Positions 21,866 through 39,800 of a stretch of DNA of 64,000 nt are shown here, in pieces. The notes under the pieces were generated by a model that ran no database searches, was not told the origin of the DNA, and saw nothing but the letters and a program-made list of their open reading frames with translations. How positions within the stretch are numbered: the stretch's first letter is position 1; each line of letters opens with the position of its first letter. The stretch is from Octopus vulgaris (lineage: Eukaryota). The stretch is taken from NCBI GenBank assembly GCA_951406725.2, contig OX597821.1:98580001-98644000 (forward strand). The letters run 5' to 3'. A program made the position numbers and the translations under genes.

Positions 21866-21950
21866 CTGTACATTGTTGTTAATTACACACTCGCGCGCGC
21901 ACACACACACACTATACTTGGTTGACGGAAACTATATAAGTCCGTACTAA

Positions 21951-22364
21951 GGCGGCGAGCTGGCAGAAACGTTAGCACGCCGGGCGAAATGCGTAGCGTA
22001 TTTCGTCTGTCGTTACGTTCTGAGTTCAAATTCCGCCGAGGTCGACTTTGCCTTTCATCCTTTCGGGGTCGATAAATTAAGTACCAGTTACGTACTGGGG
22101 TCGATGCAATCGACCTAATACCTATGTCTGTCCTTGTTTGTCCCCTCTGTCTTTAGCCCCTTGTGGGTAATAAAGAAATAGGTATTTCGTCTGTCGTTGC
22201 GTTCTGAGTTCAAATTCTGCCGAGGTCAACTTTGCCTTTCATCCTTTCGGGGTCGATAAATAAAGTACCAATTTCGCACTGGGGTCGATATAATCGACTC
22301 AATCCCTTCGTCTGTCCTTGTTTGTCCCCTCTATGTTTAGCCCCTTCTGGGCAGTAAAGAAATA
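21951..22364 (+). mobile_element. Dimeric SINE family C insertion
   Basis: One full copy plus a 5'-truncated copy within a single 15-bp TSD, TATATAAGTCCGTAC (21933-21947 and 22365-22379). Confidence 0.9.
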
Positions 22365-37700: not shown

Positions 37701-38769
37701 AAGTTGACTTTGGTAGGATTTGAACTCAGTTTGGCAGAACCGTTAGCACGCCGGGCAAAATGCTTAGTGGTATTTCGTCCGCCGTTACGTTCTGAGTTCA
37801 AATTCCACCGAGGTCGACTTTGCCTTTCATCCTTTCTGAGTCGATAAATTAAGCACCAGTTATGCACTGGGGTCGATATAATCGACTTAATCCGTTTGTC
37901 TGTACTTATTCATCCCCTTGTGGGTAGTAAAGAAATAAGTATGTTGAATACATTTTCACATATAATGCCTCCAAACGTCTGTTCCTACCCTACATTCACC
38001 TTACCAAATTACTGGATCATTCTGTCTAACCATCAGCTACAATCATGGGATAGCCGCTTTCTCAGTCCCCACCCACTGGCTTCGTCCTCTTTCTCTAACC
38101 GTTTTACTGTCGAAATCAGATATCTCTTCTCGAAATTTCATTACCCTTAATTACTGAAAGCAGTTTTATGTACCGAACTATCACTTGTTGAGGAATGTCA
38201 TGTCTGGAACCATGTTTGGAACCAAGTTCACTGAGGCAACGTGACCTGCAGAAAATACCAAATCTATTTTTTGAGTAGATACTTAACATTATTACCAGAA
38301 TAAACATGAAACTTAATTTTGCAGTCAAAGATTTAAGTTTTCCAGTTGTTACCAAGTGCAGTGACCCCCAAGTTGACAAATAATCACCCAACCCCACTAA
38401 AATATATGGGGATAGATTCCATTTTGTTTCTGTTTATTAATGAGAAAACAAAATGGCATTTGCATCCATATAATTCTTCTTTGCTGACATATTGGACAAG
38501 TTTTAAAAGTTTAAATCAAGATTTTTATCATACATGACAATTTTCCTGTCTCTTTAATCACCACAGGATCACCCAACCCCCACCGTGAAAAGGACCGATC
38601 AAACGCTCAAGGCTTTGTCTTCTCGTATAACATCCAAACTAAATACTTCAAATAAAAACAGCAATAATAATAATTCTTTCTATTATAGGCAGAAGACCTG
38701 AAATTTTATGAGGGTGGGGGCCAGCCAATTGCATCTATCCCGGTACTCAACTGCTACTGGTTTATCAAC

Positions 38770-38840
38770 CCATCGGTGGTTCAGTGGTAGAATGCTCGCC
38801 TGCCACGCGGGCGGCCCGGGTTCGTTTCCCGGCCGATGCA
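38770..38840 (+). tRNA. tRNA-Gly-GCC: tRNA-Gly(GCC), probably a retroposed pseudogene copy
   Basis: Matches the standard animal tRNA-Gly-GCC (GCATCGGTGGTTCAGTGGTAGAATGCTCGCCTGCCACGCGGGCGGCCCGGGTTCGATTCCCGGCCGATGCA) except G1>C and T-loop A>T (TTCGTTT). No encoded CCA; followed by ACTTAACTTTT; lies inside a TSD together with a SINE. Confidence 0.88.
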
Positions 38841-38853
38841 ACTTAACTTTTGA

Positions 38854-39083
38854 GGCGGTGAGCTGGCAGAAATGTTAGCGCGCCGGGCGAAATGCTTAGC
38901 GGTATTTCGTCTGCTGTTATGTTCTGAGTTCAAATTCCGCCGAGGTCGACTTTGCCTTTCATCCATTCGGGGTCGATAAATAAAGTACCAGTTTCGCACT
39001 GGGGTCGATATAATCGACTTAATACCTGTGTCTGTCCTTGTTTGTCCCCTCTATGTTTAGCCCCTTGTGAGTAATAAAGAAAT
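38854..39083 (+). mobile_element. SINE family C fused downstream of tRNA-Gly
   Basis: Full-length copy; its 3' end abuts TSD TGGTTTATCAACCC. Confidence 0.9.
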
Positions 39084-39564
39084 TGGTTTATCAACCCAAA
39101 AAGGACGCAAGGCAAAATCGACCTTGCTGGAATTTGAACTCAGAATGTAAAGGCTGACCAAATGCCTCTAAGCATTTTGTTCAGCGTGCTAACAGTTCTG
39201 CCAGCTCGCCACCTTAATAACAACAACAATAGTAATCATAATCCTTTCTACTAAGCACAAGACGCAAAATTTGCGGGGAATGGCTGGTTGATTATATCAC
39301 AACTGGTACTTGTTTCATCAACCTCGGTGGCATTTGAATCAGAACATCAGAAAAACGAAATGCCACGAAGCATTTTACCCAGCACAGTAAGGATTCTGCC
39401 AACTCACCACCCTAACAATAATAATCCTTTCTACTAATAGGCACAAGGCCTGAAATTTGGCAGGAAGGGATAGTTGATCACATCAGCATCAACTCTGAAA
39501 GGAGGAAAGGCAAAGTCAACCTCGGCCAAATTTGAATTCAGTATGTAGCAACAGATGAAATACC

Positions 39565-39800
39565 TATTTCTTTACTACCCACAAGGGGCTAAACACAGAG
39601 AGGACAAACAAGGACAGACAAACTGATTAAGTCGATTATATCGACCCCAATGCATAACTGGTACTTAATTTATCGACCCCGAAAGGATGAAAGGCAAAGT
39701 CGACCTCGGCGGGATTTTAACTCAGAACGTAACGGCAGACGAAATACGGCTACGCATTTTAGTCCGGCGTGCTAACGATTCTGCCAGCTCACTACTTCAT
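39565..39800 (-). mobile_element. Young SINE family C nested in an older C-related SINE
   Basis: 16-bp TSD CAACAGATGAAATACC at 39549-39564 and 39801-39816. Confidence 0.88.

Follow-up and report, generated by a model that had tools for sequence, protein, structure and literature searches.

A single-copy fusion of precursor tRNA-Gly(GCC) and a SINE, its likely source gene and a position 58 signature that likely reflects RNA methylation

Background

The closest kind of element described in the accessible text of published reports corresponds to retrocopies in which U6 RNA was joined to a LINE or a SINE by LINEs other than L1, namely U6-L2 and U6-Mon-1 in platypus, and U6 with L2, RTE or AnolisSINE2 in anole (PMC4476161). 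As in the insert analysed here, a Pol III RNA lies in front and a retroposon behind, in the same orientation and within one target duplication (PMC4476161). The two situations also share cuts on the 5' side of the small RNA, short LINE tails with short duplications and the proposal of template switching (PMC4476161). The material described below differs from these chimeras, as far as the open text of that report goes, by the use of precursor tRNA with a gene-specific trailer, by the many isotypes involved and by stops and errors at tRNA position 58.

Primate tRNA/L1 chimeras (PMC11838501) and tailless tRNA retropseudogenes (PMC5322556) are likewise tRNA sequences inserted by LINEs with a target duplication, and they indicate that unprocessed tRNAs can be used. 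According to the available account, the primate chimeras amount to 21 loci that are mostly antisense tRNA halves (PMC11838501), whereas the tRNA is sense here; tailless retropseudogenes are 3'-truncated and have no partner (PMC5322556), whereas the copies described below keep the 3' end and the trailer and are truncated from the 5' side. In human U6/L1 chimeras attributed to RtcB ligation, the oligo-U end is joined directly to the retroposon (PMC6789731), and several of the present copies similarly end in four T.

An R2-derived enzyme has been reported to copy individual RNAs serially and end to end, beginning at each 3' end and leaving no or a few added bases at the junction (PMC8594491), which resembles the joins seen here; that jumping was shown in vitro with a modified enzyme, whereas the acting enzyme in the present case is a putative LINE reverse transcriptase. 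The signature that m1A leaves in RNA-seq, as given in the accessible parts of two reports, consists of arrest 3' of the A and misincorporation, with T before U and a low signal for Asp and Glu (PMC4787781, PMC5066629). A similar pattern is found here, although the known signature stems from in vitro cDNA and the present one from germ-line insertions by natural LINE enzymes. Finally, template switching has been proposed to add new heads to SINEs, a family being recognised by shared masters and not by independent chimeras (PMC4494074). A search of titles and abstract starts in the open literature, with subscription papers outside its scope, found no report of sense precursor-tRNA-SINE fusions with trailers or of an m1A58 signature in genomic copies, and a literature search for a published name of the SINE families gave nothing usable.

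Structure of the insert

The window analysed here is a stretch of 64,000 nt (G000:C8:98580001-98644000) from a genome of 2.8 billion bases in 227 contigs. A tRNA-Gly(GCC) at 38770-38840 is the sole tRNA detected in it by ARAGORN and Rfam (RF00005, 55.7 bits, E 2.8e-9), and is also the one match that Rfam returned for the window. It is part of a composite insert that is located within an older SINE and has the following features:

38663..38771, minus strand: 3' part of the older host SINE, the insertion target (blastn to family copies in the window; the halves join in register with intact copies)
38758..38772, plus strand: left copy of the target-site duplication, 15 bp (exact repeat, in only two places in the window; its two final bases also serve as tRNA positions 2-3)
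38770..38840, plus strand: tRNA-Gly(GCC) retrocopy starting at position 2-4, without CCA (ARAGORN; Rfam; three positions differ from gene L260)
38825..38825, plus strand: T at tRNA position 58 (A in all 32 plain genes), likely a misreading of m1A58
38841..38853, plus strand: precursor 3' trailer of 11 nt ending in four T, plus two bases that match the source-gene flank, the second common to the SINE start (matching 13 nt of the flank 3' of gene L260)
38853..39083, plus strand: full-length SINE (family C), with 6.9% divergence from the majority sequence of 24 SINE partners in such chimeras
39084..39098, plus strand: right copy of the target-site duplication, 15 bp, flush with the SINE 3' end
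39084..39215, minus strand: 5' part of the older host SINE (blastn)

An initial annotation of this DNA had described a tRNA-Gly(GCC) without CCA, an 11-nt trailer ending in four T and a complete SINE, all within a direct repeat, and this arrangement is confirmed by ARAGORN, Rfam and blastn. The trailer at 38841-38851 ends in four T and directly follows a tRNA that has no CCA, while the SINE runs from 38852/38853 to 39083 (231 bp) and shares 89-92% identity with five other window copies across about 230 bp. The repeat had been correctly placed at 38758 and 39084, but it measures 15 bp instead of 13-14 bp; it is exact and occurs only at these two places in the window. Since the repeat ends in two bases identical to tRNA positions 2-3, the start of the copy, previously given as about position 2, has to be widened to positions 2-4, with the insert ending at 39098. 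Position 1 of the retrocopy is target DNA and the copy stops 1-3 bases short of that position. The proposal that the insert splits an older minus-strand SINE also holds, as the two halves align in register and without a break to intact family copies once the insert and one repeat are removed (compared by eye). The T that replaces A at position 58 (38825) had not been noticed before.

At the insert, the tRNA comes first and the retroposon second, in the same orientation and directly joined, and one 15-bp repeat encloses them both with none between the two parts, which supports the earlier view of a single chimeric retroposition event. A history in two steps, in which the SINE was inserted first and the tRNA later at its 5' end, or a DNA-level duplication, is very unlikely: the SINE part is indeed more diverged from its majority sequence than the tRNA part from its gene, as such a history would allow, but no further repeat flanks the tRNA, the similarity to the source gene (see below) ends 13 nt past the tRNA and is absent upstream, and 26 independent tRNA joins occur at the same SINE start. 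Under a single event, the tRNA part shows no change besides position 58 while the SINE part lies 6.9% from the majority of the 24 partners (range 3.0-7.6%); taken together, these values require a SINE template that had already diverged, and suggest that the insertion in the window is young.

Judging from its sequence, the tRNA copy is probably inactive, because the 1-72 pair and the A58 of the B box are lost and four T stand ahead of the SINE. The initial annotation had seen in such inserts a route by which tRNA gene copies are spread; this remains valid for them as a source of copies, but the copy in the window has lost two of the features just listed, the 1-72 pair and A58.

Contigs from four public runs were compared with positions 38990-39700 and gave only paralogous SINE matches, in an output swamped by repeats; two runs contained a 320-bp piece of the right flank and no contig of the four runs spans the join. 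Elsewhere, family C SINEs form chains of two or three, each later copy directly adjoining the one before it and beginning near base 49 (window positions 21950-22363 and 39488-39797; L262:3142-3710).

Source gene of the tRNA part

An exact search of the genome with the tRNA 3' end and the trailer gave five places (control 0), all of which are fusions that differ in their partner or their join, with tRNA starts at positions 1, 2, 11, 59 and 60. Two further chimeras having the window trailer (L155 and L226) bring the total to seven, each joined differently. The corresponding plain gene was missed by exact searches owing to one change in the acceptor stem and was recovered by a two-mismatch search. 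This gene, L260 (G000:C25:32253328-32253398, minus strand), is a full tRNA-Gly gene with the window trailer, an A at position 58 and no flanking repeat; a tRNA-His gene is located 1.5 kb upstream. The window copy matches its 3' flank over 13 nt, two of which lie past the four T, after which the similarity stops, and none is found upstream. Among the seven copies of this one gene the match to the source flank varies from 9 to 13 nt, indicating that the 3' end of the small RNA was not fixed, and five of them end at or just after the four T. The 5-nt leader of L260 is also carried by one chimera, L001, which comes from the same gene. The initial annotation had taken the precursor to be 5'-matured; the window copy, which ends short of position 1, is compatible with either state of the 5' end. 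At one acceptor-stem base L260 is unlike all seven trailer-bearing copies. On sequence grounds L260 is likely the source, in which case it would have changed later, or it would be the sister of the true source gene.

The initial annotation had left the choice between read-through from a tRNA gene into a downstream SINE (5' transduction) and a template switch or ligation onto a precursor tRNA, and had proposed as a check to search for the junction and for genes with the same trailer. That search led to L260, in which the trailer is present with no SINE behind it: none of family C occurs within 10 kb downstream, the nearest copies being about 3 kb upstream. Because the trailer of L260 is not followed by a SINE, read-through is refuted at the window locus, and a template switch or a ligation is favoured instead. 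The trailer names the likely source gene and settles this choice for the window locus. In favour of read-through it may be said that the flank match extends two bases past the four T and that a weak terminator may have been read through slightly, but the same trailer is found in seven different joins.

The suggestion that the insert could be a snapshot of a new dimeric SINE fares no better. The window join is single-copy in exact and two-mismatch searches of the genome; with up to two mismatches, the junction search returned four places (control 2), which correspond to the window copy, two places without tRNA and gene L260, so that the window copy alone has its join. The B box of the tRNA part is damaged, A58 being T, and a four-T terminator precedes the SINE, two features expected to impair transcription of the whole. 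Amplification of a chimera was considered for an identical join found twice with another partner (L190 and L202) and was rejected for this pair, the one checked, in which the tails belong to different subtypes. By the measure of shared masters, as worded in the accessible text (PMC4494074), the window locus does not represent a SINE family. Overall, an origin by read-through, or a role as founder of a dimeric family, is exceedingly improbable.

Chimeras across the genome

The 15-base 3' end of tRNA-Gly(GCC) is found at 68 places, which were assigned by reading the flanks of each to 32 plain genes and 36 chimeras. A 12-base search gave 103 places (control 12), of which 101 were examined; the 33 extra places yielded 10 further Gly-GCC chimeras, for a total of 46, after setting aside six Gly-TCC-like chimeras (all with A58), one base-deleted copy, one decayed copy and 15 unrelated matches. 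When L226 is added to these 46, trailers match a plain gene exactly over at least 8 nt in 19 of 47 chimeras, against a shuffled rate of 0.002, and the remaining 28 have no such 8-nt match. Most of the plain tRNA-Gly(GCC) genes (21 of 32) are grouped in two clusters (G000:C5:19.64-19.71 Mb and C7:47.11-47.35 Mb).

Across isotypes, tRNA ends with trailers are joined to the family C SINE start in 26 cases (control 0, the SINE start being required by the pattern). Twenty-four of these reach the SINE 3' end, and a non-simple repeat of ca. 10 bp or more, one mismatch allowed, was found around 12 of the 26, a count to be read as having no chance control. A further 60 tRNA ends are joined to a short LINE tail (control 0), which represents the 3' end of a LINE with a reverse transcriptase domain upstream (PF00078, E 1.2e-23); from its motifs, we take this LINE to be CR1-like. 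Exact non-simple repeats of at least 10 bp flank 4 of the 46 Gly-GCC chimeras versus none of the 14 genes tested, and three of these four have a family C SINE tail; this search performs poorly on the 46 chimeras because most LINE-tail partners lie in simple repeats.

The end points of the trailers vary, in copies of L260 as in those of other genes. In two chimeras (L075 and L055) the trailer is present twice, ahead of a copy that stopped at position 59 or 54. Among 30 short copies examined, three (L067, L072 and L155) contain an inverted copy of trailer and partner that starts at 58-59. In these three, and in L222, the inversion sets in at the point at which the tRNA copy ends, as would result from a folded-back cDNA.

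Several other arrangements were seen in the course of this survey. Other Pol III RNAs were captured in the same manner, including onto the LINE tail, as for U6 (L085 and L091) and for 5S RNA with its trailer (L087). A short Gly copy precedes a tRNA-like head in L063 and L070, and some inserts may be tripartite. A tRNA-Leu(CAA)-like precursor with both intron and trailer retained is joined to the LINE tail at L098/L187 (G000:C1:10209773-10209900), which points to unspliced nuclear RNA. Precursor copies of Ala(AGC), Ser(AGA) and Leu(AAG) keep the first anticodon A (L084, L173, L181 and L184), with no sign of inosine 34 in these four cases. At L066 (G000:C11:85949600-85951600), two tRNA-Gly genes 760 bp apart each have a 5S rRNA-like sequence right after the T run.

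Position 58 of tRNA-Gly(GCC) copies

When starts up to position 62 are considered, more than half of the Gly-GCC chimeras begin at 58-60 (27 of 46, with 17 at 58-59 and 10 at 60), none at 61 and one set-aside copy at 62. The 19 copies that read past position 58 have T in nine cases, G in two and A in eight (L226 adds one A, giving 9 of 20), so that this position is changed in 11 of 19 versus 0 of 32 plain genes (Fisher p 1.6e-6), while other positions of the same copies differ at 27 of 776 (3.5%). At least six different trailers are represented among the changed copies, and both A and T are found with one trailer. A variant source allele with T58 was considered and ruled out, since the changed copies come from many trailers. 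In addition, a G58 copy was found whose gene has A58 (L052 and L055).

In silico comparison with other isotypes relied on Glu and Asp, which have the same T-loop letters at 54-61; here modification levels are borrowed from human cells and the Glu copies are mostly Glu-TTC and not Glu-CTC. In the accessible parts of the cited reports, human Asp-GTC and Glu-CTC are poor in m1A58 whereas Gly-GCC carries it (PMC5066629), reverse transcriptase stalls one base ahead of m1A and reads it as T where a U comes next (PMC4787781), and m1A58 is installed on human precursors before processing (preprint 10.64898/2026.05.17.725798). Among the 69 joins of Glu or Asp to three partner starts, 60 include the T loop and all 60 have A58; of the remaining nine, six read past 58 with A and at most three begin at 58-60. 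In total, none of 66 copies reading past 58 is changed and at most 3 of 69 stopped. Applied to Gly, the identical rule finds the T loop missing from 10 of 17 joins and a changed position 58 in 3 of 7 (p 2.2e-4 and 7.3e-4 versus Glu/Asp), and the comparison of all Gly partners with Glu/Asp gives p 5.7e-11 and 3.5e-9. Copies of His, Leu, Ser and Gly-TCC that read past the site mostly have A58, with changes in 2 of 60 LINE-tail joins and 5 of 26 SINE-start joins.

The Gly-GCC chimeras thus display stops just 3' of A58 and misincorporation with T favoured before U, and the effect is missing in Glu/Asp, for which the human data, used as a proxy, show low modification. Stops and errors at 58-60 across these chimeras are likely due to a putative m1A58, and the T58 of the window copy is likely a misreading of m1A58 carried by the RNA. 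There is a small but real chance that T58 and the starts at 58-60 arose from ordinary mutation, a variant source gene or structural stalling at the T loop instead of a methyl mark. A single base such as that of the window copy can always be a later mutation, read-through copies of many isotypes keep A58, and so do 8 of the 19 Gly-GCC ones. Such causes do not readily explain, however, that the changes are spread over at least six trailers, that one trailer occurs in both states, that the gene of a G58 copy has A, that other positions differ at only 3.5%, or that Glu and Asp, with identical letters at 54-61, show neither changes nor stops.

The two Gly-GCC copies that pass 58 and carry one particular partner tail (L038 and L055) are both G58, while T is found in the changed copies joined to other partners. 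Going by these two cases only, the misreading of m1A may vary with the LINE enzyme. Of 11 Gly-GCC copies that pass 58 and start after position 2, four (L004, L040, L061 and L071) begin at 10-11, which could represent a second stop, at a methylated G9, a pattern noticed after the fact.

Mechanism of the fusion

The window insert is most probably a single-copy precursor tRNA-Gly/SINE fusion that arose when a LINE reverse transcriptase jumped from a finished SINE RNA to the U-rich 3' end of the precursor, with m1A58 likely misread as T. The LINE enzyme would have primed at the target inside the older SINE and copied the SINE RNA through to the SINE 5' end. It would then have jumped, at the cDNA level and not by prior RNA ligation, to a nuclear precursor tRNA transcribed from the C25 gene, landing on its U-rich 3' end, and the putative m1A58 would have been misread as T while the tRNA was copied. 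Copying may have stopped 1-3 bases before position 1, a two-base microhomology then joining the cDNA to the target. Each of the other Gly-GCC chimeras, including the six that share the window trailer, most likely has a similar origin, in a LINE reverse transcriptase jump to a precursor 3' end.

The main rival is a ligation, of the RtcB type invoked for human U6/L1, in which precursor tRNA and SINE RNA were joined as RNA and then retroposed. This we regard as unlikely, although part of the evidence can be read either way. Five of the seven copies from the L260 gene end at or just after four T in the manner of U6/L1 chimeras (PMC6789731), and the m1A58 signature would look identical after ligation. 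The LINE-tail partner, for its part, starts at a fixed point behind a tRNA-like hairpin ending in A-CCA, where a nuclease could cut. A Pol III SINE RNA that is whole from its start would carry a 5' triphosphate. As stated in the open text of the sources, precursor tRNAs end in UUU-3'OH (PMC5737608), and RtcB needs a cyclic phosphate and a 5'-OH and works far less well on a 3'-OH or a 5' triphosphate (PMC6789731). Ligation is disfavoured because the precursor 3'-OH and the triphosphate of a whole SINE make poor RtcB substrates. Moreover, unlike in the human U6/L1 chimeras (PMC6789731), the precursor ends are varied and should lack cyclic phosphate, and the partners often start at the family start and not at random cuts. 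Trailers that end at widely varying points, doubled trailers and fold-backs at 58-59 are expected of an enzyme acting on cDNA; the last two need cDNA-level events and point to jumps. A jump by the LINE enzyme thus remains the preferred explanation.

A LINE sharing the 3' end of the family C SINE was not found among 30 reverse transcriptase loci examined out of 150 scored (56077 candidates), nor among 67 tail copies in the fetched loci; one RTE-like copy (L230) adjoins the last 11 bases of the SINE, which is too short to count. Many of the best reverse transcriptase matches lie in open frames of ca. 949 codons, most of them from one family of near-identical and apparently young LINEs; 24 of the 30 loci cluster, and RTE-like copies are also present. 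The LINE tail, of which a 42-mer has 1419 exact copies, has a single fixed start in about two thirds of the first 30 copies (L091-L120). Just 5' of this start, at L159:6880-6990 (G000:C1:11.29 Mb), a 7-bp stem, a bulge, a 5-bp stem and a 7-nt loop are followed by A-CCA, an arrangement like the acceptor and T arm of a tRNA (z -2.55). The fixed start of the LINE tail may reflect either a stall of the enzyme or a cut by a tRNA-processing nuclease.

Conclusions

The insert in the window is a LINE-made chimeric retrocopy, a known kind of by-product, and is neither a new SINE nor the result of read-through. What is new here is that a source gene was identified and that a position 58 signature was found with an isotype control, and retrocopies of this kind likely keep a record of RNA modification. 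We consider it probable that the genome constitutes a natural fossil tRNA-seq library, in which several LINE enzymes jumped onto hundreds of nuclear precursor tRNAs and recorded germ-line gene activity, end processing and methylation of A58, perhaps also of guanosine 9, such that the modification levels of isotypes could be read from DNA.

The stops and errors at position 58, together with the isotype control, suggest that retrocopies record heritably both an RNA modification and the stage at which precursors receive it. If this is true, genome assemblies of animals without tRNA sequencing could reveal m1A58 levels and the activity of tRNA genes in the germ line, and would give insight into how natural LINE enzymes handle modified templates. 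For the origins of SINEs, copies of a modified precursor tend to lack the B box while those of Glu and Asp precursors are intact, which may have biased the choice of tRNAs that became SINE heads.
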